Positions 3-33,671 of a stretch of DNA of 44,733 nucleotides are shown in pieces (position 1 is the stretch's first letter; the number at the start of each line of letters is the position of its first letter). Source of the stretch: Candidatus Woesearchaeota archaeon (GTDB lineage Archaea > Nanobdellota > Nanobdellia > Pacearchaeales > GW2011-AR1). The notes beneath the pieces were generated by a model. That model saw only the letters and a list, made by a program, of their open reading frames with translations. It was not told the origin of the DNA and did no database searches. Made by a program: the position numbers and the translations under genes. The stretch is taken from contig CAZHCL010000007.1 in NCBI GenBank assembly GCA_964530955.1, positions 1 through 44,733 on the forward strand, in the 5' to 3' direction.

Positions 3-3000
3 GGATGGGAATTAGGAGTAATTGCTGGAAAAGCATTTGTAACACAAATAGGAGCATCTATATCCTCAACCTCAAATGTAAACGATGGTAAATGGCATTT
101 TGTTCTGGCTACTTGGAATACTTCTGATTGGAATTTGTATGTTGATGGAGTTTCCCAAGCAAATGGAACGACAACAGTTAATACGCAAGCTCAGACTTTT
201 TTAATAGGCAGGGAAGTTCAATCTTTTGGTAAGGACTTTAATGGAAGTATTGATGATGTAATGCTGTTTAATAGGACTTTATCTTCTGGAGAAATATCTT
301 CATTGTATAATGCTTCTGCTACTCAGTATTACAATAACTTCACTTCTCTTGCCCAGGGCAGTCATACTTTTACTGGCTATGCAGTAGATTCTCTCGGAGG
401 TCTAAATTCAACTGAGACGCGTAATATAGGTTTGTTAGTTTCTCAATTAACTTCATGCGGTAACTTAAGCTATCCAAATGGAATCTATCTTTTACAGAAT
501 AATATTTATAATTATAACGGCACTTGCTTTACAATAACTGCTGATAATGTAACTTTAGACGGGCAAGGATTTACCATTAATGGAACTCAGGACCCAGCCA
601 ATGTTTACTGGGGAGTCAACGCTACGACCTCAACAAATGCGACCATAAGAAATATCACTATCTTGGAATTTGGAGATTATAATAGATTAAATGTTAATGA
701 CGGGGGAGGAATTTATTTATCTGCAAATAATTCATTGATAAATAATGTAAACTTAGGTCTTAATTATCAGGGATTGTTGATTTCTTCTACCTCTTCTAAT
801 AACTCTATGCTAAACAGCGCTTCTTCTTTTAATAGAATAGGAATAACTGTGAATGGTCAGAATAATATTCTTACAAATGTGAATGCAAAGACAAATACCG
901 GTGGAGATGGAATTGATATTAGAGGTAATTATACTAATTTAACAAATATACAAGCAAATTCTAATACTTTAAGTGGTATTTCTGCTGTCAGCAGTTTTAA
1001 TATATTTTCTAACATTACCACTAATTCAAACGCTGGTTTTGGAATAACTCATGGAGGCATGCTTGTTAGCGGTCAGAATAACACTTTTTACAACATTACC
1101 ACTAATTCAAACACTGGTCTTGGAATATTATTTAGTGGATCTAATAGTAGTTTTACCAATGTAGTTGCAAATTTTAATACTAACGGAATACTTGCTGGTA
1201 CTTCAAATATTATCTTTTCTAATTTTGTTGCCAACTCAAACAATAATACAGGTATATCGATTTCTGGGTTAAATCATGTATTTTCTAATATAACCGCCAA
1301 CTCAAACAATAATACAGGTATATCAATTGGCTCAAATTCAAGCAACTTTACCAATGTAGTTGCAAATTCTAATAAAGCTAGCGGAATATCATTTGGCACA
1401 GCTAGTTTTAATATTTTATCTAATGCAACTACGATGTTAAATAACTTAGGTTTATACTTTTCTGCTTCTTCTCAGTTTTCAAACACATTAATCAATTTGA
1501 CTTCCACTAACAATACATTATATGACTTAAATCAGAGTAAAGTAGCCGTAAAAGGAGCATACTTTATTGACGACGTTATTTCTACTTACAACCTTCAAAA
1601 TTCATCTGACCAGATATTCTTCCAGAACTCAAGTTCTGGAGAAATAAGATTTCTGGCAACAACAAGCGGGGCCGGAATAAATGGAACTGGCTTAAATTTG
1701 ATAGGTAATTCAACTTCAGATATAGTAATTATCAATAACAGCGTATTTGTAAATTCAGTCCAGTCTGGACTGAATAGGAGCGCAAATATAACTCTTTACA
1801 ATCTTCCCACTACTCTAGCTAATCCAACAATATTAAGAGATGGAGGTGTATGTCCTTCAAGCATTTGTTACAACTTTACCTCATTAAATGCGGGAAATGT
1901 ATCCTTTAATGTAACTGGTTGGAGTAATTATAGTATATTTGGTAATTTTAATCTTGATTCATGTGGTACTTTAAGTTCTCCAAACGGAATTTACTTCTTA
2001 GGGAAAAATGTTAAAAATTATGCCGGAACTTGCTTTACAATAACTGCAGATAATGTAACCTTAGACGGACAGGGACATACAATAAATGGAACGCAGGATA
2101 TTAATAATGCCTATTGGGGAGTCAATGTTACTAGCGTTAATAATGTGACGATAAAGAATATCACTATTCTTAATTTTGGAAATTATCCCAATCTGGTAGG
2201 TGTACTTGATGGAGGAGGAATTTATCTTTCAGCAAATAAATCAGTAATAAGTAATGTGAATATTAGTTTGAACTATTACGGGCTATTAATAAAATCTGAT
2301 TACAATAATCTAAACGGTATCTACTATTATTCAAATATAAATGGGATTATAATAAATGGCAATTCCAGTGTTATCTCTAATACTACTTCTAATTCATGTT
2401 ATTATGATGGTATAGATTTGAATGGTAACTCTAATAATCTCACAAACATACAATCAAATTCCAACGGACTTGCAGGAATATCTATTGGTTCTAGTTTCAA
2501 CATATTATCTAATGTAACGACTATGCTTAATAAATTGGGAGTATACCTTTCTGCATCCCCTCAAGTTTCAAACACAATAATCAATTTAACTTCCACCAAT
2601 AATACAGTATATGACTTAAATCAGAGCAAAGTAGCAGTAAAAAGCACATACTTTATTGACAGTATTATTTCAACTTATAATCTGCAAAATTCATCCGACC
2701 AGATATTCTTCCAGAACTCAAGTTCTGGAGAAATAAGGTTCCTAACAGGAATAAACGGAACTGGAACAAATCTTATAGGTAATTCAACTTCCGACATAGT
2801 AATTATCAATAACAGCGTATTTGTAAATTCAGTCCAGTCTGGACTGAATAGGAGCGCAAATATAACTCTTTACAATCTTCCCACTGGAGTTGTACTTCCG
2901 ATAATGCTTCGAGATGGTTTTGTTTGTCCTTCAAGCATTTGTTACAACTTTACCTCATTAAATGCAGGAAATGTATCCTTTAATGTAACTGGTTGGAGTA

Positions 3001-6000
3001 ATTATAGTATAGGTAGCAGCATCACTCTAATTAATTCATGTGGAATCTTGAACAATCCAAATGGAATTTACCTTTTACAGAACAATATCTCCAATTACAA
3101 TGGAACCTGCTTCACAATAACTGCAGATAATGTAACCTTAGACGGACAGGGATTCACTATCAACGGAACTCAGGATCCTGCTCATGCATATTGGGGAGTC
3201 AACGCAACAGGTGTTAATAACGCAACCATAAGAAACATCACTATTCTAGATTTCGGAGATTACAACAAAGTAGGTTTATTGGACGGAGGAGGAATATATC
3301 TTTCTGCAAATAGCTCTACTATAATGAATGTAGGTTTAAGCTTTAATTACCAGGGAATTGTTTCAACTATTTACAATTCTACGTTGAATAACATTTCTTC
3401 AGATAATAACCGGGCAGGTATTATCGCTAGTGGCCAGAGTAATATTTTCTCCAATATAGATACAAGTTCAAATTCATTGGGAACAGGTTTTTCATATAAT
3501 GGAAATTTTAGCATCATGACTAATATAACCGCAAATTCAGATTATCGCTCAGTCCTTATAGTGCACACAATAGCCTTTTCTGTTACGGGTAATTCAAATA
3601 ATTTCACATCAATAACTTCAAGTAATAATATAGGAACTGGTCAAAGCGATGGAATTTCAATAACAGGAAATAATCTTAACTTGTTTAATATTACTTCTCT
3701 GAATAATAGGGGAGTAGGCCTTTCGGTTTCAGGAGATTCAGCAAATCTTAATTGGGCAAATCTAAGTTACAATAATTATGATGGGTTAGATATATACGGA
3801 AATTCGGGAAACTTTTCTAATATAGATTCATCATTCGATAATTATGGTATCTATGTTATAGGTAATTCTACCTATTTGAATAATATAACCTCAAACTCAA
3901 ATGGTTTTGATGGAATTTATATTTCTGGAAATTATGATGGATTATCTTTGGCAAACGCTAATTCCAACGGAGGCAACGGTATGACCCTTACCTCAAGTAC
4001 CTCTTGTAACTTCACAGGTATAAATGCAAGCTATAACACTTTAGGTAACGGAGTGTATATTGAATTAAGTAATTCCAATATACTTGCAAATGTAAACGCT
4101 TCATTAAATAGTTATGGAATACTTGCAACAGGAAGTTCTTCAAATAATTTCAATAATATTACTACTTTCTCAAATTCTTTGGATGGAATATATATAACTG
4201 TGGGTTCTTCAAATATACTTGGAAATATTACTTCGAGATTTAATTCAGGTAATGGAATAACTCTTTATCAGTCTGCGGATAGCACTAATCTATCAAATGC
4301 AATATTAAATAACAATACAAATGCTGGATTAAGTGTGCAGAGTAGCTCATATGCAACAATATCCAATATAACGGCAAATACTAACGGGTTTGGATTACTA
4401 GCTTCTTCATTCACATCAAATAATTTCATTAATTTGACTGCTCTTAATAACAGCCAGTATGATTTGAATCAAAGTGATATGGCAATAAATCTTACTTATT
4501 TCATTGACAGTAGAATTGCAAGCTATTCTCTTCTTAATTCATCTAACCAGATATTCTTCCAGAACTCAACATATGCAGAAATAAGATTTTTATCTGGAAT
4601 AAACGGCACTGGAACTAATTTTATAGGAAATGACACTTCAGATATAAGACTTTCTAATAATAGTGTTTTTGTAAACTCAGCACAAAGTAGTCTTAACCAG
4701 CCGGCAAATGTTACTCTTTATGGAAATCCTGCTGGTTCTGCTTCCAATCCTAGAATATTTAGAAATGGTCTTTCCTGTTCATTTAATGTGTGTTATAATT
4801 TCACTTCTTTGACTGCTTCAACAGTTATTTTCAATGTAACTGGATGGAGCAATTACAGTATAGGGAACTTAGATGTTCCTAATATAAGTTTTGTTTATCC
4901 TACTCCCGTAAATACTAGTTTTATTACTTCACCAAGTTTAATAGTTAATTTAAGCACGGCTAATCCAACCAGCCATTATTCTTTTGTTGATTTTGATAAA
5001 TCTTTGGTAGGGTTGTGGAGAATGGAACAAAATAATGCAACTTTTTTTGCTGATGAAGGAAATTATGGATATAATGGAACATGTTACGGAACAAACTGCC
5101 CTACTTTTAATGCCACAGGAAAATTCGGGGGAGCAGTTTATTTCAACGGCTCACAATATATTAATATAACCAGCAATACAACTAACTTACCTATTGGAAG
5201 TCAAAATAGAACGGTAAGTGCTTGGGTAATGTATAATGGAAGCGTTGATTCTCAGGATAGGTATTTCTTCTCTTATGGGCAATTGGCAACTACTAATTTT
5301 TGGGGAATGGGTGTAATTTCTGGCAAATTTATATTTACCCAGGTCGGGGCGAATATTCAGTCAAATACATTGGTAAGCAATGGTAAGTGGTATATGATGA
5401 CTGTAATGTACAATGGAACTGGTACTGGTTTATATGTCAACGGAGTGCTAGAACAGTCAGCTACTTCTGTTGCTTTACCTATCAATACAGTTATTCAGCA
5501 GGCTCACTTTGGAGATGCTTTCTCAGTTGGATCTCAAAGTTTTAATGGACGCGTTGATGACTTAATTATTTTCAACAGAACTTTATCCTCTGGAGAAATA
5601 TCTTCATTGTATAATGCTTCGATAAAGCAATATTCTAATAATTTTAGTTCTTTGAATCAAGGAATTCATACTTTTACTGGTTATGCCGTAAGCAGTCTGG
5701 GAACTAAAAATCAGACTGAAAAAAGAACCGTAAATTTAGATAGTATAAATCCAAATATACAATTTGTCTCTCCAACTTATTCAAACGGAACTTTCTTTGC
5801 AGGGTCTTTGCCAGTGAATATAAGCAGCAGTGATGCGAACACACATTACACTTTTGTAGACTTTGATAAATCATTAGTGGCTTGGTTCAGGTTCAACAAT
5901 GAATCTGGTGAAAATGCTAGCTTCTTCAAAGATTACAGTACATATGGAAATAATATGACTTGCTTCGGAACCTGTCCTACAAGTAATATCTCTGGAGCAT

Positions 6001-7358
6001 TTGGAAAGTCAATTAATGTATTCGGAGCATCGAATTCCTCGCTGAATGCATCATTAAATGGCAATTCACCAAGAAACTTTACTGTGTCAATCTGGATGTC
6101 AACAACATTAACTGGAGATGTTCTTCCATTTTGGTGGGGAACTGGATGTTCAGGCGGAATGATATATATCGGAACAAAATCGTCCCAAGCAGAGTTTGGA
6201 TATTGTGGGGCTGGTCAGAATGTTAATGGTGGCTCAAATCTTAATAACGGAGCTTGGCACAATATTATTGCTGTTGTAAATGACTCTAAAACAATCTTAT
6301 ATGTTGATGGCTTAAGTGTTGCCACTTCTACCCTTCTTCCAGGTAGTATAAATGGAACCTGGAATCTCAACCCTTCGGCGAGGACCACTCCTGAAGGAGA
6401 AGTAGTTGATGAGATATTAGTTTTCAACAGAACTTTATCTGCTGGAGAAATATCTTCTCTTTATAATGCAACTGCAAATCAATATTATAATAATTTTACA
6501 GTAGGATCTGGAAAACACAATTACATCGGATATGCGGAAGATATAGCAGGCAATACAAATCAAACAGACTTTAGAACAGCAATATTTGATTCTCCTCCAA
6601 ATGTCAGCCTCATATCTCCTTTGGATGGTGCCTCAACTACTAACAGAACTCCATTATTTAATTGGACAGGTTCAGATCCGGATAATAATTCTTTGACTTA
6701 TGAGCTTAATATAACCTGCTATGCGCTTGCTGGAGGAATATGCACAGGTAAGGGTAGTGATGATAGGTACTACAACAATAATACTATTTTGGGTAATACG
6801 ACATTTATAATTCCGGGAGATTTGCTTTATTTGTATGACCACAATTATTATTATAATTGGAGCGTTAGGGCTTACGATGGAACCATGTATGGAAATTGGA
6901 CAAATGCTTATAGACTTAATATAAGTTCCTTAGTATTAATAAGCAATCCAGTTAATTCAGTGGTATTCGGTTCCATATCTCTTTTAGCTTCTAATGATAC
7001 GACTAAAAATAATCCAAGTCCATTTGTTCTCCAAAATGATGGAAATTCTTTTGTTAATGTAACTATTACAGGAACTTCACTTTGGAGCGCTATTACAAAT
7101 CCAAGCAAGTATTTCCAGTTTATGGTCGGTAATAATACTGCTCCAGGCTATTCCGAAAATGGTTCATTTATATGGGGAAGTTCTTCAACATTATTCACTA
7201 ATGTTTCCTCTTCAAGCAGCGCAGTAGATATTTCAACTCTCAACTATTCGGATGTAACTGATAGTGCAAGAGTAGACATCAATGTAACGGTTCCTGTCGG
7301 AGAGCCTCCTGGAGCAAAAAACTCAACTATAACTTTCCTGGCGGTGTTGGGAGAATAA
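3..7358 (+). CDS. Giant secreted/surface protein (adhesin or S-layer-associated): LamG-like domains, three right-handed beta-helix (NosD/pectin-lyase-like) modules, an Fn3-like domain and a beta-rich C-terminal domain; 5'-truncated by the window edge
   Basis: The frame is open from base 3 (GWELGVIAGKAFVTQIG...DGKWHFVLATW), so the ORF-track start at 135 is internal. LamG motifs (GKWH/GAWH, LYVDG/LYVNG, FNRTLSxGEISSLYNA) occur three times. Three repeats begin SCGxLxxPNGIY...CFTITADNVTLDGQG. Very Asn/Ser/Thr-rich. Confidence 0.85.
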   Translation, partial: GWELGVIAGKAFVTQIGASISSTSNVNDGKWHFVLATWNTSDWNLYVDGVSQANGTTTVNTQAQTFLIGREVQSFGKDFNGSIDDVMLFNRTLSSGEISSLYNASATQYYNNFTSLAQGSHTFTGYAVDSLGGLNSTETRNIGLLVSQLTSCGNLSYPNGIYLLQNNIYNYNGTCFTITADNVTLDGQGFTINGTQDPANVYWGVNATTSTNATIRNITILEFGDYNRLNVNDGGGIYLSANNSLINNVNLGLNYQGLLISSTSSNNSMLNSASSFNRIGITVNGQNNILTNVNAKTNTGGDGIDIRGNYTNLTNIQANSNTLSGISAVSSFNIFSNITTNSNAGFGITHGGMLVSGQNNTFYNITTNSNTGLGILFSGSNSSFTNVVANFNTNGILAGTSNIIFSNFVANSNNNTGISISGLNHVFSNITANSNNNTGISIGSNSSNFTNVVANSNKASGISFGTASFNILSNATTMLNNLGLYFSASSQFSNTLINLTSTNNTLYDLNQSKVAVKGAYFIDDVISTYNLQNSSDQIFFQNSSSGEIRFLATTSGAGINGTGLNLIGNSTSDIVIINNSVFVNSVQSGLNRSANITLYNLPTTLANPTILRDGGVCPSSICYNFTSLNAGNVSFNVTGWSNYSIFGNFNLDSCGTLSSPNGIYFLGKNVKNYAGTCFTITADNVTLDGQGHTINGTQDINNAYWGVNVTSVNNVTIKNITILNFGNYPNLVGVLDGGGIYLSANKSVISNVNISLNYYGLLIKSDYNNLNGIYYYSNINGIIINGNSSVISNTTSNSCYYDGIDLNGNSNNLTNIQSNSNGLAGISIGSSFNILSNVTTMLNKLGVYLSASPQVSNTIINLTSTNNTVYDLNQSKVAVKSTYFIDSIISTYNLQNSSDQIFFQNSSSGEIRFLTGINGTGTNLIGNSTSDIVIINNSVFVNSVQSGLNRSANITLYNLPTGVVLPIMLRDGFVCPSSICYNFTSLNAGNVSFNVTGWSNYSIGSSITLINSCGILNNPNGIYLLQNNISNYNGTCFTITADNVTLDGQGFTINGTQDPAHAYWGVNATGVNNATIRNITILDFGDYNKVGLLDGGGIYLSANSSTIMNVGLSFNYQGIVSTIYNSTLNNISSDNNRAGIIASGQSNIFSNIDTSSNSLGTGFSYNGNFSIMTNITANSDYRSVLIVHTIAFSVTGNSNNFTSITSSNNIGTGQSDGISITGNNLNLFNITSLNNRGVGLSVSGDSANLNWANLSYNNYDGLDIYGNSGNFSNIDSSFDNYGIYVIGNSTYLNNITSNSNGFDGIYISGNYDGLSLANANSNGGNGMTLTSSTSCNFTGINASYNTLGNGVYIELSNSNILANVNASLNSYGILATGSSSNNFNNITTFSNSLDGIYITVGSSNILGNITSRFNSGNGITLYQSADSTNLSNAILNNNTNAGLSVQSSSYATISNITANTNGFGLLASSFTSNNFINLTALNNSQYDLNQSDMAINLTYFIDSRIASYSLLNSSNQIFFQNSTYAEIRFLSGINGTGTNFIGNDTSDIRLSNNSVFVNSAQSSLNQPANVTLYGNPAGSASNPRIFRNGLSCSFNVCYNFTSLTASTVIFNVTGWSNYSIGNLDVPNISFVYPTPVNTSFITSPSLIVNLSTANPTSHYSFVDFDKSLVGLWRMEQNNATFFADEGNYGYNGTCYGTNCPTFNATGKFGGAVYFNGSQYINITSNTTNLPIGSQNRTVSAWVMYNGSVDSQDRYFFSYGQLATTNFWGMGVISGKFIFTQVGANIQSNTLVSNGKWYMMTVMYNGTGTGLYVNGVLEQSATSVALPINTVIQQAHFGDAFSVGSQSFNGRVDDLIIFNRTLSSGEISSLYNASIKQYSNNFSSLNQGIHTFTGYAVSSLGTKNQTEKRTVNLDSINPNIQFVSPTYSNGTFFAGSLPVNISSSDANTHYTFVDFDKSLVAWFRFNNESGENASFFKDYSTYGNNMTCFGTCPTSNISGAFGKSINVFGASNSSLNASLNGNSPRNFTVSIWMSTTLTGDVLPFWWGTGCSGGMIYIGTKSSQAEFGYCGAGQNVNGGSNLNNGAWHNIIAVVNDSKTILYVDGLSVATSTLLPGSINGTWNLNPSARTTPEGEVVDEILVFNRTLSAGEISSLYNATANQYYNNFTVGSGKHNYIGYAEDIAGNTNQTDFRTAIFDSPPNVSLISPLDGASTTNRTPLFNWTGSDPDNNSLTYELNITCYALAGGICTGKGSDDRYYNNNTILGNTTFIIPGDLLYLYDHNYYYNWSVRAYDGTMYGNWTNAYRLNISSLVLISNPVNSVVFGSISLLASNDTTKNNPSPFVLQNDGNSFVNVTITGTSLWSAITNPSKYFQFMVGNNTAPGYSENGSFIWGSSSTLFTNVSSSSSAVDISTLNYSDVTDSARVDINVTVPVGEPPGAKNSTITFLAVLGE
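1011..1324 (+). repeat. Coil-level direct repeats: 21 bp at 1011-1031 and 1092-1112 (offset 81); 29 bp at 1230-1258 and 1296-1324 (offset 66)
   Basis: AACATTACCACTAATTCAAAC twice and GCCAACTCAAACAATAATACAGGTATATC twice; offsets equal 27 and 22 codons, i.e. single beta-helix coils. Confidence 0.85.
1722..3010 (+). repeat. Near-identical direct repeats at offset 1074 bp: 1722-1811 = 2796-2885 (90 bp, identical) and 1851-1936 vs 2925-3010 (86 bp, one mismatch)
   Basis: Direct nucleotide comparison of the two copies. Confidence 0.85.
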
Positions 7359-9859: not shown

Positions 9860-10594
9860 TTAGAACTTCTTGTTGAGATTTATTCCGAATACGACTCTAT
9901 TCTTGAATATTCCGTGTATTCCATCTATTTTTCTCTGTGCGCTCAGAGAAGGAGTAAGCGTAAATCCTTTTCCAAGATCAAAGTTTACTTTACTTTGTGC
10001 CGCAACATGAGTAATTCCCGATTCAGAGGTGAAGAAATAGTCGTTGTAGGTGACTCTTCCTTCAAGTGATAGACTGATCTTTTGTGAAAGTTTCAGCGTC
10101 TTGTCTAAGGTAATTTGACCGAGATTTCCTTGATTACTTGTCTCACCGTGTGCATGGCTGAAATAGAGCTTTAAGTTTATTGGAAGATTTTTTGTTTTGA
10201 GAGAATATTCTTCAGTTATAGCATCAGGACTTGTTGAATCTGGGAAAGTGAAATAAATCACTCCTGCCCTGAAATCAAAGTTTTTTGTTGAATAGGTATA
10301 TCCTAGACTATTGTCTATTTCATTGACGCTGCCTTTTTTTTCATCAAGGTTGTTCCAGATATTGTATTCAATAGGACCAACATTGAAACCAATGTCGCTT
10401 TGCATTACAGGACCTTTTGATAGTGTAAACCCGAATGTTCCTAAGTATCTAGAGAATAAACCTGCATCAGTATATACACCATTTATTACCGGTTTATTAG
10501 CTTCTTCAGGTGTATTTTCTCCTGCCTTTGCGTAGGGCGTTGCAAGAGCTAAAGCCAGTGCTCCGAGCGCAGTTATCTTTGAAAGTATTTTCAT
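9860..10594 (-). CDS. Secreted beta-barrel-like protein resembling TorF/Gcw_chp putative porins, 244 aa
   Basis: Signal peptide ending AKA; SRY..G......PVMQ, NEIDxxLGY and AGVIYFTFP patterns; many amphipathic strands; ends GINLNKKF with a terminal Phe. Confidence 0.65.
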   Translation of the reverse strand: MKILSKITALGALALALATPYAKAGENTPEEANKPVINGVYTDAGLFSRYLGTFGFTLSKGPVMQSDIGFNVGPIEYNIWNNLDEKKGSVNEIDNSLGYTYSTKNFDFRAGVIYFTFPDSTSPDAITEEYSLKTKNLPINLKLYFSHAHGETSNQGNLGQITLDKTLKLSQKISLSLEGRVTYNDYFFTSESGITHVAAQSKVNFDLGKGFTLTPSLSAQRKIDGIHGIFKNRVVFGINLNKKF

Positions 10595-10595
10595 G

Positions 10596-11798
10596 TTAGA
10601 AAGTATAAAGAAAAGCTCCTTTGACAGTTAAATCTCCCTTTCCTGCTATTGGAATGCTTGCACCAAAAGCTGGACCCATATAATGATTTCCATACTTAAT
10701 TCTGAAAATTGTTTGAGGCTCAATTGTATCCGCGCTCTTTTTGCTATCGAAAGCATGCTTTTCTTCAACTGTCAGGCCTAATTTATAATGTCCTAGTAAG
10801 ACCTTAGGAGTAAAGTAGCTTACACCAGCTGCTAAGAATCCTGCATGACTTTTAGTATTCAAGCTTGTTCTAACATCGAATGAAATTCCTCCATTTGATC
10901 TATCATAAGGATTTATTGTTTCAGTTTTAGTAACTGAAAGTGGCAAAACACTCTGATTAAAACTATCATCTCCATTTACCCCTCTTCCAACAGCCCATAT
11001 TGCTCCGCTCTTGCTTGTTGAAGGGTTTTTAGAGAAATAAAATTCTCCGTTTAATAATTTTTCATCATTTTGAGAATTCCAGTCTATCCTTCCATTAAAG
11101 AATGCTCCCCACTGGTCCTTATTTCCCGAAGTCATCCAAAATCCGCCTAGGCTTTTATTTATTCTTACTTTATCTTCTCTTTCTGCAAAAGCGAGGCCTA
11201 TACTATTTCTTTCTGAGAAGTCGAAAATTCCATTAACTAAATACTGATCTTGTTGTAGGGGATTTTGAATATTATCGAAACCGAGCCCAATATTTAATCT
11301 TTCAGTTAATTGGTAATTCAATCCAGTTCCTAATCTTTGTGCATAGTCTGTTGTTTTTTCTTCTACGTTTATTGTTAAAGTAGTTTTACTATCTATTTTA
11401 TGTTCTGATTCAAATCCGAGACCTGCAATGTCTCCTGTGCTGCCAAAGATTCTCATCTTTGTATTTAGACCACCCAATGAGAACTCGGGAGTTCTTAATC
11501 CAATAGGAACATAATGAATATTTTTCCCGTTGGATTCTTGAATTATATCATATGCTCTAAAATATTCCATAAATTGCCCTTTTACCGCAATAACTGCTCC
11601 GTCATAAGAGCCTGAAGGAGCAAAGCCAAACGTGCTCTTTATAGTAGAATTATTATTAAGGTCTCCAGAATAGCTTATTGCTGTTCTATAAACATTTTCC
11701 TGAGGTGTTTCCTGTGCTTTTGCTACCTTGCTTGTAAGTAATGATGCTGCCGCAAGCGCTACGGCGAATCTTGACTTTACTTTATTTTTTGTTTTCAT
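10596..11798 (-). CDS. Secreted beta-barrel-like protein, 400 aa
   Basis: Signal peptide ending AKA; many alternating hydrophobic/polar strands with aromatic ends (LGTGLNYQL, LNIGLGFD, WGAFFNGRIDW); ends VKGAFLYTF; RBS GAGGT at 11812-11816. Confidence 0.6.
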   Translation of the reverse strand: MKTKNKVKSRFAVALAAASLLTSKVAKAQETPQENVYRTAISYSGDLNNNSTIKSTFGFAPSGSYDGAVIAVKGQFMEYFRAYDIIQESNGKNIHYVPIGLRTPEFSLGGLNTKMRIFGSTGDIAGLGFESEHKIDSKTTLTINVEEKTTDYAQRLGTGLNYQLTERLNIGLGFDNIQNPLQQDQYLVNGIFDFSERNSIGLAFAEREDKVRINKSLGGFWMTSGNKDQWGAFFNGRIDWNSQNDEKLLNGEFYFSKNPSTSKSGAIWAVGRGVNGDDSFNQSVLPLSVTKTETINPYDRSNGGISFDVRTSLNTKSHAGFLAAGVSYFTPKVLLGHYKLGLTVEEKHAFDSKKSADTIEPQTIFRIKYGNHYMGPAFGASIPIAGKGDLTVKGAFLYTF

Positions 11799-11854
11799 TG
11801 TATTTTTTGTAACCTCTATAAAGTTACAATGTAAAATAGAAATAATAGACTTTA

Positions 11855-11862
11855 ATATTTAA
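11855..11862 (-). promoter_or_regulatory. Candidate TATA box for the two beta-barrel genes
   Basis: TTAAATAT on the minus strand about 56 nt upstream of ATG 11798, leaving room for the RBS-containing leader. Confidence 0.45.
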
Positions 11863-11863
11863 C

Positions 11864-11889
11864 TGATATTATTGATATCACTAATATCA
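11864..11889. promoter_or_regulatory. 26-bp symmetric operator-like site TGATAT-N3-TGATATCA-N3-ATATCA
   Basis: Inner palindrome (11873-11880) and outer half-sites (11864-11869, 11884-11889) share one centre; the site lies between two divergent TATA boxes. Confidence 0.6.
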
Positions 11890-11923: not shown

Positions 11924-12847
11924 ATGGAAAGAAAACTGATAAAGCAGGGGGGCGGAGGATATACAATTTATCTTCCGAAAGGTTGGGTTGAGAAGCATGG
12001 TCTTGATAAAGGAAAAGGAGTTTCAATCATTGAAAAGGAAGATAATCTTGTAATAAGCTCTTCAATAAAGACAAAAAATGAAATAAGAATAGAAGTGGGG
12101 AAAAAGGCAGAAGAGGAAATACACAATATCCTTACCCATGCTTACAGAAAAGGCTATTCTAGAATTGTTTTGACTGGAAAATCAAATCAGATAGTAAAGA
12201 AAGTAAAGGAATCAGTAAGCACCATTCTCCTAGGTTTTGAAGTTACAGATATTTCCGATGATTCTATAACAATAGAGAATATTTCTGAACCTGCTGAACA
12301 GAAGTATGACCTTATACTCAAGAAAATATTTTTCCTGATAGAGGAGACACATTCGCTTCTTAGTTCAGGAATGGAGAAGAAAAAACTTGCTGATTTTAAT
12401 GAAATAACCCAAATAAAGGAACAGACTGATAAATATATATTGTTTTGCAGAAGACTTTTATTTAATGAAAGCTCTGGGAGAAATATCTTTTTTGATTGGG
12501 AATTTCTGACTTTTCTCAATCACATAGAGCATATTTATTATTATCTCTATAAGTACGCTAAAGATTCTGATAAACTGCAGTATGATGAAATAGGAAAAAT
12601 GGTTGCAGAGGTAAAAGATTATTTTGCGCTTCTTAAGTCGTCATATTATGAAAAGGATTTTGGAAAGATAGAGAAGATAAATGAATTAAAAAAGAAGTAT
12701 CAGTTTGGCAAATGTCTCGAAGCAATAGAAAAAAGCAGAGGCGATTCAGCAGTCGTCTTCTCTTACCTAAGGGAACTTTTCAGGATGATTCAGATAGCGA
12801 CAAGCCCAATCCTAAGTGAAATTTTAGAAGAAAAGAACAAGTATTAA
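11924..12847 (+). CDS. Archaeal phosphate-uptake regulator: AbrB/MazE-type DNA-binding domain fused to PhoU-like helical domains
   Basis: N-terminal RKLIKQGGGGYTIYLPKGWV, then AYRKGY..I and GFEVT, followed by a helical PhoU-like region. Confidence 0.85.
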   Translation: MERKLIKQGGGGYTIYLPKGWVEKHGLDKGKGVSIIEKEDNLVISSSIKTKNEIRIEVGKKAEEEIHNILTHAYRKGYSRIVLTGKSNQIVKKVKESVSTILLGFEVTDISDDSITIENISEPAEQKYDLILKKIFFLIEETHSLLSSGMEKKKLADFNEITQIKEQTDKYILFCRRLLFNESSGRNIFFDWEFLTFLNHIEHIYYYLYKYAKDSDKLQYDEIGKMVAEVKDYFALLKSSYYEKDFGKIEKINELKKKYQFGKCLEAIEKSRGDSAVVFSYLRELFRMIQIATSPILSEILEEKNKY

Positions 12848-14583
12848 TGAGAATTAATTTCGTCCATTTCGTGGTGGGGGCTATCAGGATAATAGCTGTA
12901 TAATCTGGGATTATCAGCATAGTAAACCTGACTGAGCCAAGCCTTTAGGAAATCTTTTTCATCTCTACCTATTAAATAATTTCCTTTTTTGTCTTTTGCA
13001 TCTACATATTTGATAAAATCAGGGCTTCCTGAATATTTTTTTGCTGAATTAACCCTATTTTCTCCAAGAAGGGATATTGCCAAAGTATCTTCAAGGTCAC
13101 AGGTTCCATCACTTTTTCTTGATTGTGATAATGCATGTTCAATTGATTTTGCAACTATTAGGTGGAATTCACATATCTTTGATTCTGAGATGATCTTGGT
13201 TCTTTCGCTAAATTTGTAGTGTACCATCCAATTTATGAACGCTCCTTCAGAATAATAGTTAGGGTTATCAGCTTCAGATTCCGAGAGGTTATCAGGTACT
13301 TGATGGTGGTCTGGTACAGTACATCTTCTAGCCCAAACAGCAGAGTTATATGCATTCAGCAAAAAGGCTGCGCTTCTGTTTTTAGTGGCATATCTAGCTA
13401 TATTTTCTGCGAATCCATAGGTCATAAATGAATCCTGGTATGGTTTAGGAAGCTTTAGCGAGCTCAAATCTTCCCTTGAAAAGACAATTGGAGTTTCCTT
13501 TGGGCTTTCCAAATAAAGAAGCCCTTCTGCCTTAATATTAGCAGGAATTACTTCCTTTTCTGGTATGCTTTTTATTTTATATGTTGCATAGGCTGCTAAG
13601 GCAAGAGGAGCCATTATATAGAATGCTCTTCTTGCATGTTTCTTCAAGACTTCAAGAGCATTTTGATTGTCTATTGCCCTTTTCACACCATCAACTATAC
13701 TTGCTCCGCTCCATGGGCGTATAGAAGGCTTAAACGAAGAACATTCTTCAAGAATTTTTCTATATGTTCTTGGGATTTTTTTCAGTTTCTTTTTGACGGA
13801 TAGTTTAAAATCTTTAGGATTAATTTCTTTGAAAAATTCTGGATTAGAATTAAGCTCATCCTCAAATGGGTATTTACCAGTCATTATTCTATAGCTAAGA
13901 GAAAAGAATGAATAAGCATCTGCTTCTCTTGTTGGATGGCTTTTTTCATCAAAGCATTCAGGCGCCCTTGTTTGGAGGAAGCCCATATTATCTCTGGGAG
14001 ACACGGTTGCTCCTGAAAGTGAAGCACAGGTTGATGTTCCTAAATCGTTTAGCAAAGGTCTTTCATCATAATTATCCAGAGCAATATTATCTGGTTTTAT
14101 ATCCGAATGGGCTCGGTTAAGCAAGGAGTGCGTTTCGGATATTCCTCTAGCTATTCCAAGCAAGGTATTATTTACATCTTCTTTCGTTAATCCATGGTTG
14201 AGATATTTTCTTTCCACTCCATCATCGAGCTTATCTGATAAAAATTTCTTATATTCAGGCATGACAATAAATGGCTTGTCTTCTTCATCTGTTTCGATAA
14301 ATCCAGGAACTATATGCGCGCAAGGCTTAAGTTTTCTTGATTCGTTCATTATTGCTTTTTCAGCGCTTATATTTCTGTAATCCATTTGTCTTGCTGCCAA
14401 TGGACTTGGGTCAAGAACTTTTATGGCTACTTTTTCTCCAGTAAGAGCATCGACTGCAGAGTAGACTTTTCCCCATGTGCCTTCTCCAATTCTTCTGGCT
14501 ATTTTGTACCTTTTACTCTGAATTATTCCTTCTAATCCTTCTACTTCTTTGTTATGAGTGGCTTCTTCAGATAGAACTGCCAT
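12844..14583 (-). CDS. Hanks-type Ser/Thr protein kinase with a central TM helix and a C-terminal extracytoplasmic domain, 579 aa
   Basis: GEGTWG, VAIK, HSDIKPDN, NDLG, RAPE, DAYS and GKYPF motifs; TM AFYIMAPLALAAYATY. Start reassigned to ATG 14583 behind AGGAGG. Confidence 0.85.
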   Translation of the reverse strand: MAVLSEEATHNKEVEGLEGIIQSKRYKIARRIGEGTWGKVYSAVDALTGEKVAIKVLDPSPLAARQMDYRNISAEKAIMNESRKLKPCAHIVPGFIETDEEDKPFIVMPEYKKFLSDKLDDGVERKYLNHGLTKEDVNNTLLGIARGISETHSLLNRAHSDIKPDNIALDNYDERPLLNDLGTSTCASLSGATVSPRDNMGFLQTRAPECFDEKSHPTREADAYSFFSLSYRIMTGKYPFEDELNSNPEFFKEINPKDFKLSVKKKLKKIPRTYRKILEECSSFKPSIRPWSGASIVDGVKRAIDNQNALEVLKKHARRAFYIMAPLALAAYATYKIKSIPEKEVIPANIKAEGLLYLESPKETPIVFSREDLSSLKLPKPYQDSFMTYGFAENIARYATKNRSAAFLLNAYNSAVWARRCTVPDHHQVPDNLSESEADNPNYYSEGAFINWMVHYKFSERTKIISESKICEFHLIVAKSIEHALSQSRKSDGTCDLEDTLAISLLGENRVNSAKKYSGSPDFIKYVDAKDKKGNYLIGRDEKDFLKAWLSQVYYADNPRLYSYYPDSPHHEMDEINSH

Positions 14584-14740
14584 TTTTTTCCTCCTTCTGG
14601 CCTTCCAGAATTTCAATAGTGACCTGAGTGATTGTTCCTGGTCTTAGCTGTGATTCAATAACTCGGGGTATTACTATGATTGCCTGGCTTCCGTGCTTGG
14701 CTATTTTCTTTGTTATAACGAATTTTTTCTGTTTTTCCAT
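14567..14740 (-). CDS. Small AbrB/MazE-like (DUF2080-like) swapped-hairpin protein, 57 aa
   Basis: KKIAKHGSQAIIVIP..LRPG...VTI pattern; start reassigned to ATG 14740; the end overlaps the kinase start by 17 nt. Confidence 0.65.
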   Translation of the reverse strand: MEKQKKFVITKKIAKHGSQAIIVIPRVIESQLRPGTITQVTIEILEGQKEEKNGSSI

Positions 14741-14775
14741 TCTTTTACTTATACATTTTTTATACATAAGTCTTT

Positions 14776-24528: not shown

Positions 24529-27360
24529 TTACTCACCACAGCCAGATCTTGTTGTCTGTTTACAGGAAGTGCAGTATATTGAACAATTCCCAAGACGCTT
24601 TGCTGCCCCACCGCAATGAGGGCAGGTAAGACCTTCGTCAGCGAATTCAGTCAAGGCTTTTTGCTCTTCGTCTTTTATTGGCGCTGTTTCAAGAGTTTTT
24701 ATTTCAAATTCTACCTTTCCCTCTCCGCTTCCAGAAATGAAACTATTAAGCATAAACTGTGCAACATAGTCTACTATTGACGAAGCTGTTCTGATAACTA
24801 TTTTATTCTGGTCAAGCTCTCCAGGCCTTCCGTTTTTAACGAATCCAGAAGGCTCGAACTTCTGATGCCTGAATTTTCCGAATAAGTCCGTAACAGTTGC
24901 TCCATATTGGAGATTCAGTGAAACTGAGGTAGCCCAGGCATCCATTAATCCTCTTATTGTAGAACCTTGCTTGTGCATTGTTATAAACAATTCGCCTGGC
25001 TTTCCATCATCATAGAGACCAACAGTTATGTATCCTTCATGTCCAGCAATATCAAACTTATGAGTTAGAGATTTATGTGTTTGAGGTAATTTCTTTCTTT
25101 CAGCTCTTTCTGCAATAGCAATGACTTTTTTCTTTATCATTTCTCCTTCTGTTTTTTGTGTGTTAAGCGGCTGGCTTCTCTTACTATTTTCTCTGTAGAT
25201 AGCAACTGCTTTCAACCCCTCTTCCCAGGCGAATGTATATGCATCAGCAATTTCAGCAACTGTTGATTGTTCAGGCATGTTTATTGTCTTACTTATCGCT
25301 CCTGATATGAATGGCTGTGTTACTGCCATCATTTTTATATGGCCCTTATATTGGATTGATCTTTTTCCTTTTGCTGGTTTGAATGCACAGTCAAAAACAG
25401 ATAAATGCTCATCTCTTATCCATGGAGCCCCTTCAATCATATCATTTTTATCAACATAATCAATGATATCCTTTATCTGGGTTTCACTATATCCAAGATT
25501 TCTCAATGCGAGTGGAACTCCCCTATTTACAATCTTAAGCATACCCCCTCCGGAAAGAACTTTATATTTAACAAGAGCAATATCTGGCTCAATTCCAGTT
25601 GTATCGCAATCCATCATGAATGCAATTGTTCCTGTGGGAGCAAGAACAGTTGCCTGTGCATTTCTAAATCCATATTTCTCACCTATTTCAATAGCATCGC
25701 TCCAGGAATCCCAAGCATCATTTACAAGATTTTTGAAATTAGAGGGCATCTTAACAACATCAATTTTCTTTACATTTTCTCTGTGCATATTCATCACTTC
25801 AAGCATTGAATCCCTATTTTTCATATATCCGGGAAAAGGACCGACAAGCGCTGATAATTCGGCAGAGGTTTTGTATGCTTCTCCGCACATTATGGCAGTT
25901 ATTGCTGCTGCTACTGCTCTCCCTTCATCCGAGTCATAGGGAAGACCATAGCTCATTAACAATGCACCGAGATTTGCATATCCTAAACCAAGAGGTCTGT
26001 AATCTCTGGAATTTCTCGCTATCAGCTCAGCAGGATAACTGCTTCCATCAACTGCTAATTCCATAGCAATTATCATTGTTCTTACTACTTTTCTGAAGCT
26101 TTCAACATCGAATCCTCCCTCTGATGTTCTGAATTTCATTAAATTGATTGAAGCCAGATTGCAGGCAGAATCGTCTAAAAACATATACTCTGAACATGGA
26201 TTACTTGCATTTATTCTTCCCGAATTTTTGCAGGTGTGATATTTGTTAATTATGGTGTCAAACTGCATTCCTGGGTCTCCGCATATCCAGGTTCCTTCAG
26301 CCATTTTATTTATTATGTCTTTTGCTTTAAATGTTTCGCATGGCTTGCCGTCTTTTACAAATCTTGTCTGCCATTCTCCATCTTTCTTTACTGCTTCCAT
26401 GAATGAATCAGGAACTCTGACGGACATGTTGCAGTTTTGAAAACAGACACTTCCGTATGCTTCTCCATTCATTCCTCCCGAATATCCCTGTTCAATTAAT
26501 GCCCATGCTTTCTTTTCTTCATTTTGTTTTGCAAGAACGAACTCCATTATATCTGGATGTTCAACATTGAGTATTTCCATTTTGGCTGCTCTTCTTGTCT
26601 TTCCGCCAGACTTGATTATGTTTGCATATGCATCGTAACCTTTCATGAAGCTTACTGGTCCAGATGCTCTGCCCCCTCCAGTTATTCTTTCTTTAGAACT
26701 TCTTAAAGCAGATCTATTTGAGCCAGTTCCGCTTCCTGCTTTGAATAAGACTGCTTCAGATGTTTGAAGTGCAAGAATTGCTTCCATATCGTCTTTTGCA
26801 CTTTGAATAAAACAGGCTGAGCATTGAGGTCTGTCATCACTTTTATTAGCATGGATGATTTTATCTGTAGCAGAATCCCACTTGAATGCAGAAACTCCTC
26901 CTGCTTCTTTATTATATTCCCATATTCCTGCATTAAACCAAACTGGAGAATTGAAAATAGCCAATTGATTTAGGCAAATAGCTGAAAGTTCATCTTTCAG
27001 TATGTTTGCTTGCTCTTGAGTGAAATATCCTTGATTTATTGACTGTCTTGAAAAATATCTTGCAACTCTTCCAATAAGCATCTCAACCGAATTTTCTCTT
27101 TCATTCTTGATTTGGTCGCCCCAGAAATATTTGCTTGCAACTACTTTTATTGCTAAAGTGCTCCAAAAGTCAGGTCTTCTTACGGAAGGTTGGACAAAAA
27201 TGACTTTTCCTAGGTCATCTGTGACTTTTACTTCTTCTGCTAGCCAATTTATCTTATTACCTAAAGGATCGTATTCAAATGGGCTTTTTCCTTCTTTTGT
27301 GAAATATCTAGGAATATCCATCTTTTTCAAACCAAGCTGTTGAAGTCTTTCGGGTGTCAT
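24529..27360 (-). CDS. nrdJ: Class II (adenosylcobalamin-dependent) ribonucleotide reductase with C-terminal TSCPD/NrdJb-like and Zn-finger regions
   Basis: FNSPVWFN, PQCSACFI, NASNPCSEY, APTGTI, GAISKTIN and YRENSK motifs; CPHC..CTSC at the C-terminus; no ATP-cone. Confidence 0.95.
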   Translation of the reverse strand: MTPERLQQLGLKKMDIPRYFTKEGKSPFEYDPLGNKINWLAEEVKVTDDLGKVIFVQPSVRRPDFWSTLAIKVVASKYFWGDQIKNERENSVEMLIGRVARYFSRQSINQGYFTQEQANILKDELSAICLNQLAIFNSPVWFNAGIWEYNKEAGGVSAFKWDSATDKIIHANKSDDRPQCSACFIQSAKDDMEAILALQTSEAVLFKAGSGTGSNRSALRSSKERITGGGRASGPVSFMKGYDAYANIIKSGGKTRRAAKMEILNVEHPDIMEFVLAKQNEEKKAWALIEQGYSGGMNGEAYGSVCFQNCNMSVRVPDSFMEAVKKDGEWQTRFVKDGKPCETFKAKDIINKMAEGTWICGDPGMQFDTIINKYHTCKNSGRINASNPCSEYMFLDDSACNLASINLMKFRTSEGGFDVESFRKVVRTMIIAMELAVDGSSYPAELIARNSRDYRPLGLGYANLGALLMSYGLPYDSDEGRAVAAAITAIMCGEAYKTSAELSALVGPFPGYMKNRDSMLEVMNMHRENVKKIDVVKMPSNFKNLVNDAWDSWSDAIEIGEKYGFRNAQATVLAPTGTIAFMMDCDTTGIEPDIALVKYKVLSGGGMLKIVNRGVPLALRNLGYSETQIKDIIDYVDKNDMIEGAPWIRDEHLSVFDCAFKPAKGKRSIQYKGHIKMMAVTQPFISGAISKTINMPEQSTVAEIADAYTFAWEEGLKAVAIYRENSKRSQPLNTQKTEGEMIKKKVIAIAERAERKKLPQTHKSLTHKFDIAGHEGYITVGLYDDGKPGELFITMHKQGSTIRGLMDAWATSVSLNLQYGATVTDLFGKFRHQKFEPSGFVKNGRPGELDQNKIVIRTASSIVDYVAQFMLNSFISGSGEGKVEFEIKTLETAPIKDEEQKALTEFADEGLTCPHCGGAAKRLGNCSIYCTSCKQTTRSGCGE

Positions 27361-27800
27361 TTTCCAACAAGCTCCTTTATTTCTTTCTTAAAATCAGATA
27401 TGTCTGTGAAATCATGATACACTGAAGCGAATCTTATGTAAGCAACTTTGTCAGCTTTCTTCAGCTCTTTAGAAACAAACTCTCCAATCACCTTGGTTTC
27501 GACTTCTTTTCCCATTTTTCTTATTTTGTCTTCAATTTTGACCACCATATTATCAATCTTCTCAGAGCTTATCGGTCTTTTCTCGCAAGCTCTTATTATT
27601 CCTTTCTTTATCTTTTCCCTATCGAAAGGCTCTCTTCGACCGTCTTTCTTGATTACTCTGAGGTTTATCTCCTCTAACGCTTCTATGGTGTTAAAGCGCT
27701 TGGAGCATTTTTCGCATTCTCTTCTGCGTTTTGTTATGCCTCCACTATCCCTTTTGTCAACGACCTTTGTTTCGGGCGACAGGCAATAGGGGCATATCAT
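27357..27800 (-). CDS. nrdR: Transcriptional repressor NrdR (Zn ribbon plus ATP cone)
   Basis: MICPYC..TKVVDKR...RRRECEKC.KRFNTIE, VIKKDGRREPFDREK, VAYIRFASVY; 4-nt overlap with nrdJ. Confidence 0.95.
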   Translation of the reverse strand: MICPYCLSPETKVVDKRDSGGITKRRRECEKCSKRFNTIEALEEINLRVIKKDGRREPFDREKIKKGIIRACEKRPISSEKIDNMVVKIEDKIRKMGKEVETKVIGEFVSKELKKADKVAYIRFASVYHDFTDISDFKKEIKELVGK

Positions 27801-31111: not shown

Positions 31112-33670
31112 TCACTTCAAAGTTGTCTGCCCAGAGGGCTCGGGAACATCGGGAAGCTCATCGGCAGAAGGCACTTTGACTATTGCCGCTACTTTATCGC
31201 CTTCTTTTAGATTGACTATTCTTACTCCCTGAGTTGCTCTTCCCATGACTCTTATGTCTCTCATATTCACTCTTATTACAACTCCTTTTGCGGTTGTTGC
31301 AATGATTGAGTCTTTTCCTGAAACTGAAAGTGCAGTAAGAACATCTCCTGTCTTGTCGGTTGTGTCGAGAGTGATTACTCCTTTCGTTCCTCTGCTTGTC
31401 TTTCTGTACTCTTCAAGCTCTGTTCTCTTTCCATATCCTTTCATTGTTGCAGTTAATATTGTTGTTTTACCGTCTTTTGGAATAGCTTCAAGTGCAACAA
31501 TTTCATCTGTCTTTCCTAGGTCAGCACCTATAACTCCATAGCTTGCTCTTCCCATTGATCTTACTTCATCAGAAGCAAACCTTATTGCTTGGCCTTTCTT
31601 TGTTATAAGAAGAACTTCTTGTCCATCTTCGACTCTTGCAACATTAATCACCACATCACTTCCATCTCCGGGAAGATTAATTACTCTGACTCCTGTGTTT
31701 CTTGGCTTTGCTAAATCTTTCAAAGGTAACTTCTTCATCATTCCTTTCTTTGTGGCAAACATTAGGTATCCTGATTCGAAGTCTTTGATTGCCATTACAT
31801 TACTTATTGTTTCATCTCTTAGCTCTAGAACATTAATTAGAGCTTTTCCTTTTCCTTGTCTTTCGCTTGCAGGAACATCATTTGCTTTCAACCAGTATAC
31901 TCTTCCTCTTGAAGTAAAGAATAGAAGATAATCATGTGTTGAACAGGACAATAGTTTTGTTACAAAGTCTTCTTCTTTCAAGTCTGCTCCAGAGACCCCT
32001 GCTCCTCCTCTCTTCTGCTCTCTATAGGCTTGGACGTCAACTCTCTTTATGTAACCTCCAGAGGTTATCATTACTGCAACGTCTTTCTTTTCAATAAGGT
32101 CTTTTTCAGTTATTTCTTCAACTCTCTTAAGAATCTTTGTTCTTCTTTCATCTCCATACTTATTCTTTATATCAGTAATTTCTTTCTTAATGACTTTTAA
32201 TATTTCCTTTTCATCTCCAAGAATTGCTTTAAGCTCAGCAATTGTTTCCTTCAATTTCTTTTCTTCATCTTTAAGTTTTCCTGCTTCCAAATGAGTCAAC
32301 TGCTGTAGTCTTATTTCTAGAACTGCTTTAGCTTGTCTATCTGTTAAGTCAAATTTCTTCATTAAACCAGAATGGGCTTCAGTTGCGTTTGCGCTCTTCT
32401 TGATGAATTCAACAATTTTATCTATATCTTTCAACGCAATAAGCAATCCTAAAACAATTTCTATTCTGTCTTCTGCTTTTTTCAACTCAAACTTACTTCT
32501 ATTCCTTATGGTCAATTGCCTGTACTTTAGGTATTCACTTATAATCTCTTTGAGATTCATAACTTTTGGCTGTTTGCCAACTAGGGCAAGCATATTCGCA
32601 TCAAAAGAAGTTTCAACATTGGTAAGGGTATACAATTTGTTTAATGTAAATTTAGGATCAACGTCTTTTTTTAATTCAATAACTATTCTTACTTTTCCCT
32701 TGGCAGATTCATCTCTTAAATCATAAATATCCGGCAATTTCTTTTCAGTGGCAAGTCTGGCAATTGTTTTTACCAATTCTGCCTTGTTGACCATATAGGG
32801 TATTTCAGTTATTATAATTGAAACTCTTCCTTTCTTATCTTCTTCAATTTCTGTTCTTGCTCTGATTACAATTTTACCTTTTCCTGTTTTATACATATCT
32901 TTTATTCCTCCGCTAATCATTCCTCCAGTAGGGAAATCAGGCCCCTTCACTATTTCTGCAAGTTCATCAACAGTTACATTTGGTTTGTTAATCATTTCAA
33001 TAACTGCTTCACAGACTTCTGTTAGGTTATGAGGAGGAATATTTGTTGCCATTCCAACTGCAATTCCAGTTGCTCCGTTAAGAAGAATATTTGGCAATGC
33101 TGCTGGAAGTGTTTCTGGTTCTTCAAGAGAGTTATCGAAGTTAGGCCTCATCTTGACCGTTTCTTTTTCAATATCTGCTAAAAGTTCCTGGGAAACCTTG
33201 CTTAGCTTTGCTTCAGTATATCTGTCTGCTGCTGCGCTGTCTCCATCCATGCTTCCAAAGTTTCCCTGTCCGTGAATAAGAGGATATCTTAGGGAGAAAT
33301 CTTGGGCCATTCTTACTAATGCATCATAAATTGCGATATTACCATGAGGGTGGTACTTACCCATTGTTTCTCCAACAATTCTTGCTGATTTCATTGTTGA
33401 TTTAGAATTGTCTAAGCCTAGGGTGTGCATTGCATAGAGAATTCTTCTGTGAACTGGCTTAAGTCCGTCTTCAACACTTGGCAAAGCTCTGTCAACTATA
33501 ACTGACATTGCATAGTCTATGAATGCCTGCTCCATCTCTTCAACAATTTCTGCTCCGGCTACTCCTTTTTCATTTCCTATCTGGTCTTTTTCCCTTCTCT
33601 TGCTTTCTTCAGCAACCATTTCCTGTTCTGTTTTGTTTTCGCCGTTTCCGTTGTTTTCTTCTTTTGCCAT
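31112..33670 (-). CDS. gyrA: DNA gyrase subunit A
   Basis: [29 protein letters not shown] (catalytic Tyr), GyrA-box QKRGGAG and C-terminal pinwheel repeats. Confidence 0.97.
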
Positions 33671-33671
33671 T

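Follow-up and report, generated by a model that had tools for sequence, protein, structure and literature searches.

A possible archaeal sensor of the bacterial cell wall

The question raised by this locus is whether an archaeal receptor-like Ser/Thr kinase, with an outer domain resembling a degenerate lytic transglycosylase, could allow its owner to detect the bacterial cell wall, as the original prediction proposed. The gene lies on contig C7 of a 761-kb genome that is 83% complete, and the window below is the whole stretch of 44,733 nt that was analysed.

A conserved receptor kinase restricted to one archaeal lineage

The protein combines a cytoplasmic-type kinase, a membrane helix and a C-terminal ectodomain:

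12844..14583, minus strand: receptor-like Ser/Thr kinase gene (kinase, membrane helix, SLT-derived ectodomain), 579 aa from its ATG
13714..14508, minus strand: Hanks-type kinase domain, residues 26-290, from the PF00069 match and family conservation
13570..13626, minus strand: single membrane helix, residues 320-338, by hydropathy (weak here, clear in the family)

PF00069 was matched with an E-value of 1.9e-24 (87 bits against a cut-off of 31.7), and the catalytic residues K55, E81, D161, N166 and D180 are intact, with a non-RD loop (HSDIKPDN, residues 159-166) and DLG at residues 180-182. With E209 also conserved, the protein is a Hanks-type kinase at the sequence level. As word-seeded searches for homologues retrieved only the query or one relative, an exhaustive HMMER search was required; using residues 340-579 as the query and an E-value of 0.001 or better, this identified 111 clusters, 83 of which are at least 450 aa long. 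The 28 shorter matches align to the full-length profile as fragments lacking its N-terminus and thus make no case for a stand-alone ectodomain, although one of them, P0106, may differ. D161, N166 and D180 do not vary across the 83 full-length relatives, of which 80 have K55 and 76 have E81. T108, S121 and S294 are invariant as well and make candidate phosphosites. The position just before the catalytic Asp holds Gly in 49, Cys in 10, Ser in 8 and Ala in 8, making the loop non-RD, and DLG outnumbers DFG by 57 to 16.

The best 19-residue hydropathy score in the 579-aa kinase is a weak 0.95 (residues 320-338), while the corresponding value is at least 1.2 in 76 of the 83 relatives. An excess of Lys and Arg toward the kinase side of the helix, seen in 71 of the 83, fits a topology with the kinase inside and the C-terminus outside, as judged from hydropathy and the positive-inside pattern only. 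The claims of an N-terminal kinase with intact catalytic residues, a single membrane helix (put at about 13573-13632) and an outer rather than cytoplasmic C-terminal domain were thus all supported.

Among the best 80 matches listed, the eight leading named loci belong to Woesearchaeota, Pacearchaeota or Nanoarchaeota, seven of which align over almost the full query, while the remaining 72 matches are bacterial and confined to the N-terminal kinase part. This supports an archaeal (DPANN-type) origin. Several of the named loci share identical proteins with genomes of the same genus or family. Distribution is patchy: of 400 near-complete genomes in the phylum, 6 have the kinase, and 60 close relatives gave strong matches in five plus one weak, kinase-only match. 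A search of viral contigs with one pattern found no relative.

The ectodomain is predicted to adopt the SLT fold

12895..13434, minus strand: lysozyme-like / SLT-fold core of the ectodomain, about residues 384-563

The ectodomain core was modelled as all-helical with high confidence. The top rows of two fold searches all belong to one superfamily and span the whole ectodomain, the closest folds being peptidoglycan lytic transglycosylases and not chitinases, and the start and end points of the model fall on the catalytic and last helices of SLT structures. Individual scores were low: Foldseek with the ectodomain models never attained an E-value of 0.001, and ESM Atlas gave no feature match and structure rows that all lay under its bar, three of the ten being SLT proteins at TM 0.24-0.33. 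Searching the ectodomain against Pfam, PF01464 included, gave no match, and a PDB sequence search gave nothing relevant.

Comparison by hhalign with 36 SLT rows (five E. coli enzymes, the others from the same phylum) gave an E-value of 0.11, with 3 of 40 block shuffles scoring above the real alignment. Removal of six truncated SLT rows improved this to 0.023, with a score of 19.2 against a shuffle maximum of 15.5, and global mode produced an alignment without meaning. The likeness is thus not significant at the sequence level alone. The alignments nevertheless place G507 on the Gly of AYNAG and F545 on the Tyr of ETRxY, such that the register of the SLT motifs first perceived by eye was recovered, while the sequence similarity itself did not reach significance. 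The lysozyme-like fold predicted for the outer domain re-emerged from both fold searches in place of any unrelated fold, and on the strength of these models the ectodomain very probably has it.

Loss of the active site and retention of a conserved C-lobe

13330..13377, minus strand: helix 403-418, equivalent to the catalytic helix, lacking Glu (N413 or V416)
13042..13098, minus strand: DLED...G motif, residues 496-514, corresponding to the helix that ends with AYNAG
12922..12966, minus strand: residues 540-554, equivalent to ETRxYVxKV, with F545 replacing the conserved Tyr

The two C-terminal peptides quoted in the original prediction were located at residues 496-514 and 540-554. According to the alignment end points, the trimmed model begins 16-17 residues before the catalytic Glu of SLT structures: at residue 48 for E64 of MltE, 487 for E503 of P. 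aeruginosa Slt, 124 for E141 of Ra-ChiC and 201 for E217 of MltC, where the first three Glu numbers come from PDB titles and the catalytic role of MltC E217 is taken from the alignment. The catalytic site would fall at residue 416 if the alignment is gapless, or at 413 if the helix N-caps are matched, and the residues there are V416 and N413. The choice of register is immaterial, as Glu occupies at most 10 of 106 rows at every column from 409 to 420, versus 30 of 30 in the SLT control, and the suspected absence of the catalytic Glu was thereby confirmed.

The other motifs are similarly altered. The end points set F545 on Y192 of MltE and Y345 of MltC, and Phe is found at this position in 97 of 107 rows. 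In SLTs the conserved Tyr of ETRxY assists the catalytic Glu; no paper on this role was found in the literature searched, which took in few subscription papers. The Tyr of AYNAG is replaced by Ala, Ser or Thr and the Asn by Arg, such that only the Gly and Pro of the motifs GLMQ, AYNxG and ETRxY are retained in the kinase family. The GLMQ hairpin is missing from both ectodomain models, and the hairpin region varies in length and sequence. Judging from these substitutions, the ectodomain is very probably not an active transglycosylase.

Conservation is found elsewhere in the domain. The near-invariant residues D496, E498, D499, G507, A514, S520, Y526, A529 and G534 sit in the C-lobe, with D496, E498, D499 and G507 present in 106-107 of 108 rows. 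Q448 (90 of 108 rows) and Glu or Asp at 542 (100 of 107) occupy cleft-equivalent positions, and the positions of R505 and E542 are equivalent to cleft-lining motifs of SLTs; the 579-aa kinase itself lacks Q448, R505 and P539. An EF-hand reading of the GKVDLED segment (13060-13122, minus strand, residues 488-508) was rejected: relative to the EF-hand loop pattern, positions 5-12 fit, but positions 1 and 3 are Ser/Ala and Thr and not Asp. D496 and D499 presumably form a helix capping box, which would explain their conservation.

Related ectodomains at different stages of decay

Kinases adjoining related regulators carry other versions of the ectodomain (INTERMEDIATES). Group 2 (L167, L168, L186 and L187, with L188 similar) is co-linear with SLTs over 157 columns (E-value 0.075, score 17.7 versus 15.1 for the best of 25 shuffles) and matches the main family with an E-value of 0.003 (24.8 versus 23.0 for shuffles); it retains the Tyr of AYN and has Cys, Ile, Ile or Ala at the Glu position. 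Group 3 (L169-L172 and L058) consists of the C-lobe only (E-value 0.003, 25.5 versus 17.6). As each of these profiles holds four rows, the support they give is modest. A quick kinase tree joined the main group and group 3 in one branch (99) and placed group 2 in another (98). In the group-2 ectodomain of L167:5702-7546 (G301), a Glu lies one residue beyond the catalytic position, making it the best candidate for residual activity. The kinase of the L175 cassette carries an unrelated ectodomain, and that of L002 is truncated past the membrane helix.

Intact SLT domains were found in 209 of 400 genomes of the phylum, a tally that takes in one unpublished genome, so the raw material for such a receptor was at hand. 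Three of the six kinase carriers have intact SLT genes (G108, G277 and G292, with G145, G242 and G411 absent from the SLT listing), which is no enrichment over 209 of 400. The genome of the 579-aa kinase gave no PF01464 match, and no kinase fused to an intact SLT was seen among 30 SLT loci examined out of more than 380 matches.

A tail-to-tail regulator and its putative operator

11924..12847, plus strand: 307-aa regulator with an AbrB/MazE N-domain and a weakly PhoU-like C-terminal part, from PF04014 and synteny
11852..11888, no strand assigned: operator-like motif of GATAT-type repeats with a 9-bp period, between the regulator and the divergent operon
14567..14767, minus strand: gene for a small basic protein of 55-66 aa directly upstream of the kinase, from tblastn and phmmer

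The regulator converges on the kinase tail-to-tail with a 4-bp overlap. The original prediction took no account of this partner, nor of the operator-like motif and the divergent genes for exported proteins. It matches PF04014 at 24.9 bits (cut-off 24.7), as do 37 of 39 homologues, while PF01895 (PhoU) is matched weakly in 6 of the 39 (best E-value 5e-4) and not in the 307-aa protein itself; a PDB sequence search with the regulator returned no match. The tail-to-tail pair is present in 13 of 14 informative genome loci, a set that leaves out G007, whose locus is ended by the contig; in the exception, G277, the regulator lies about 4 kb from the kinase. A metagenome scan with four close members as the query found the same pair in all 21 loci with downstream sequence, about 16 of them new, and a 22nd locus, at the end of its contig, survives as a remnant. 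The partners of main-group kinases fall in one 16-row branch (support 94/88) of a 39-regulator tree, together with L058, L146 and L149. Regulators farther off stand beside kinases of group 2 or group 3, genes for soluble phosphotransferase-like proteins, or genes unrelated to either. The predicted complex of the kinase with two regulator copies scored 0.00 and carries no weight for or against the pairing. We consider it probable that the kinase acts through this regulator.

The genome also holds a second kinase (G000:C2:2501-4602, L002), of 414 aa and group-2 type without an ectodomain, which is again tail-to-tail with an AbrB/PhoU-like regulator and has response-regulator-like genes farther along. 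At L149, L150, L152, L154, L159, L161, L162 and L165, members of this regulator family converge tail-to-tail on genes for soluble proteins with aminoglycoside-phosphotransferase-like C-termini, with a PF01636 match for L149 only; their gene order and sequences suggest a version of the cassette without a membrane helix. The small basic protein, AbrB-like by eye and without a Pfam match, precedes the kinase in many cassettes. Its family shows 50-74% identity across genomes, has three copies in this genome (contigs C1 and C2 too) and is also found after barrel-like genes in L195.

The motif at 11852-11888 is flanked on both strands by back-to-back TATA-like boxes, which we take to be TATA/BRE elements. 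Against a matrix built without the window it reaches 45.9, compared with 11.9 for the best other independent site in the genome, and it is the sole site above 13 bits in the 761 kb. Regulators with TxYLP-type AbrB strands have a motif scoring at least 23 in 14 of 19 cases (ten of the 19 being training rows, scored leave-one-out), versus a score above 1 in none of 13 SLP-type cases, and the seven TLP-type cases are mixed. Among metagenome loci, 5 of 5 of TIYLP type score 44-50 (two of them duplicates of genome loci) and 10 of 10 of SLP type are negative. Thus, in the sequences compared, the motif varies across branches in step with the AbrB domain, and we infer that 11852-11888 is the operator of the 307-aa regulator. 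SLP-type regulators (L053, L054, L143, L166, L186 and L002) have, in place of the GATAT motif, a different AT-rich, operator-like upstream motif of TATAT/AGTATA repeats. A sigma-70 scan gave results at chance level.

Divergent genes for exported proteins

10596..11798, minus strand: first gene of the divergent unit, for an exported protein of 400 aa that resembles a beta-barrel (weak)
9860..10594, minus strand: exported 244-aa TorF-like putative porin (weak, sub-cut-off matches; homologues in other cassettes)

The 400-aa protein has a signal-peptide-like N-terminus and a C-terminal Phe, with OmpG-type ESM Atlas matches at 0.90 and an alternation score at the 96th percentile of the genome, which is weak evidence for a barrel. 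The 244-aa protein also ends in Phe and matches TIGR02001 (E-value 0.019) and PF19413 (0.014), both under the cut-off, and the divergent genes as a set gave sub-threshold matches to TIGR02001, YaiO, DUF481 and DUF2490. At the other main-group genome loci, the divergent unit was read as barrel-like in five more cases, a branched-chain amino-acid ABC unit in one, a proteasome-type AAA ATPase in two and a sigma-70-like protein in one, the remainder being other or cut genes. As the 14 barrel-like proteins were chosen by eye, their scores are descriptive only.

The two ATPase units, L178:7484-12001 (G108) and L181:6154-10473 (G001), open with an ARC/Mpa-like proteasome ATPase. That of G001 matches TIGR03689 with an E-value of 6e-113 and is followed by an E1/ThiF-like gene, and that of G108 is followed by Dop-, Pup- (ending in GGQ) and PafA-like genes by eye. 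G108 also carries two tandem kinases. At L141:2585-3691 (G242), a protein with sigma-70 regions 2 and 4 is divergent from the regulator in an archaeal genome. Elsewhere in the window are a giant surface protein of at least 2407 aa, incomplete at the contig start and containing LamG and beta-helix domains (135-7358, plus strand), and, in an archaeal genome, a class II ribonucleotide reductase with an NrdR of bacterial type ahead of it (24529-27800, minus strand) and a gyrA/gyrB pair (31112-35585, minus strand).

Comparison with known systems

The PASTA kinases PknB, PrkC and StkP likewise have a cytoplasmic Hanks kinase, one membrane helix and a peptidoglycan-linked extracellular domain, and StkP is among the best PDB sequence matches of the kinase family profile. 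According to the accessible text of PMC6213207, PrkC binds muropeptides and phosphorylates AbrB. The archaeal kinase differs in its SLT-fold ectodomain, non-RD loop, archaeal host and dedicated tail-to-tail regulator, and it has no PASTA Pfam match and scores 56 against a cut-off of 450 for NF033483. Family-1 lytic transglycosylases (Slt70, MltC, MltD, MltE and MltF; PF01464, GH23) share the fold and helix order, with the Gly of AYNAG and the Pro before ETRxY in register, but in the archaeal domain the catalytic Glu and GLMQ hairpin are gone, AYN and ETRxY are altered, similarity is below Pfam detection and the domain is fused behind a kinase and membrane helix. The protein would thus function like a PASTA kinase without being one, and its ectodomain shares the SLT fold but does not qualify as the enzyme.

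Plant receptor kinases (LysM-RLKs and CHRK1) also wire a kinase to a carbohydrate-recognition or inactive glycosidase domain, tobacco CHRK1 being a receptor kinase with a dead-enzyme ectodomain. They are, in contrast, eukaryotic, with the chain in the opposite orientation (ectodomain N-terminal) and ectodomains of different folds (LysM or GH18). Within the same lineage and fold class, the accessible portions of published work describe large extracellular murein-transglycosylase proteins of Woesearchaeota and Pacearchaeota (fam00969; PMC8204110), averaging about 1,950 aa with signal peptides and a detectable GH23 domain, and GH23 genes (PMC9723730), and propose bacterial hosts or wall contact for these groups from such wall-cutting enzymes (PMC8204110, PMC9723730). 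The present proteins are instead kinases of 500-600 aa with a degenerate domain, and the accessible part of PMC8204110 mentions no kinase for fam00969; in that of PMC12352652 the word "kinase" occurs 0 times. No description of a kinase-SLT fusion or of a kinase-regulator-operator cassette was found in the accessible literature searched, which took in few subscription journals.

A tentative model for the cassette

Taken together, our analysis identifies a receptor kinase that is real, conserved and restricted to one lineage, has a pseudo-enzyme ectodomain derived from an SLT and belongs to a regulatory cassette that can be defined. As a disarmed fold lies outside and the cassette joins it to a regulator and pore-like secreted proteins, the receptor may be a sensor for bacterial contact. 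In the explanation that we favour, tentatively, a Pacearchaeota/Woesearchaeota pseudo-enzyme receptor kinase is the input of a three-part cassette. Its ectodomain would bind without cutting, most likely to peptidoglycan or peptidoglycan fragments when the archaeon touches a bacterium; binding would cluster the receptor and activate the kinase, as for PASTA kinases; the kinase would phosphorylate the neighbouring regulator and change its hold on the operator; and this would switch the divergent exported unit, which from genome to genome encodes porin-like barrels, an ABC system for amino-acid uptake or AAA/proteasome proteins. Peptidoglycan is the leading candidate for the ligand, though a tentative one: fold ancestry, extracellular position and the published proposals of action on bacterial walls favour it, while the eroded cleft, the C-lobe-only group 3, the lack of a PF01464 match in the genome and of SLT enrichment in carriers count against it.

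In a somewhat less probable explanation, the cassette is the same and the SLT-derived domain no longer binds glycan, serving instead as a dimerisation or protein-binding module that senses a surface protein of the host, barrels exported by the cell itself or the state of the envelope through the conserved C-lobe surface and not the old cleft. The invariant D496, E498, D499, S520, Y526, A529 and G534 lie in that lobe while the hairpin region is variable, group-3 kinases hold the C-lobe alone, and the L175 kinase has an unrelated ectodomain while that of L002 is truncated after the membrane helix. Against this explanation stand the retention of the entire two-lobed fold across 111 clusters, the conservation of Q448 (90 of 108 rows) and of R505/E542 at cleft-lining-equivalent positions, and the Tyr of AYN kept in group 2. 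Sensing of a non-bacterial GlcNAc polymer, such as archaeal N-glycans or S-layer glycans, whether from a host or from the cell itself, pseudomurein or chitin, is improbable, given that the closest folds are peptidoglycan lytic transglycosylases and not chitinases and that the divergent genes often resemble bacterial outer-membrane barrels. More improbable still is that the domain is an active enzyme whose acid has moved elsewhere, for example to E542 or E482, or that the SLT match reflects a common helical arrangement only, as the top rows of both fold searches come from one superfamily with whole-domain coverage, the end points coincide with the catalytic and last helices, and the sister groups bridge to SLT motifs with their order preserved.

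The favoured model, a pseudo-enzyme receptor at the head of a three-part cassette, can be extended to a cassette dedicated to bacterial contact, in which a disarmed SLT domain would sense peptidoglycan and its kinase would phosphorylate an AbrB/PhoU-like switch, which would turn on beta-barrel pores of outer-membrane type and uptake systems for use on, or against, bacteria serving as hosts; we regard this extension as unlikely on balance. Even with a ligand other than peptidoglycan, the results define a family of pseudo-enzyme receptors derived from SLTs, in which stages of decay can be seen, together with a cassette of kinase, regulator and operator new to the accessible literature searched. 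If the extended model is true, the kinase would act as an archaeal pattern-recognition receptor directed at bacteria, through which a bacterial lifestyle of these DPANN lineages could be tested. A receptor built from a wall-cutting enzyme makes the host question of Pacearchaeota and Woesearchaeota testable in separate pieces, namely ectodomain and ligand, kinase and regulator, and regulator and 37-bp operator.
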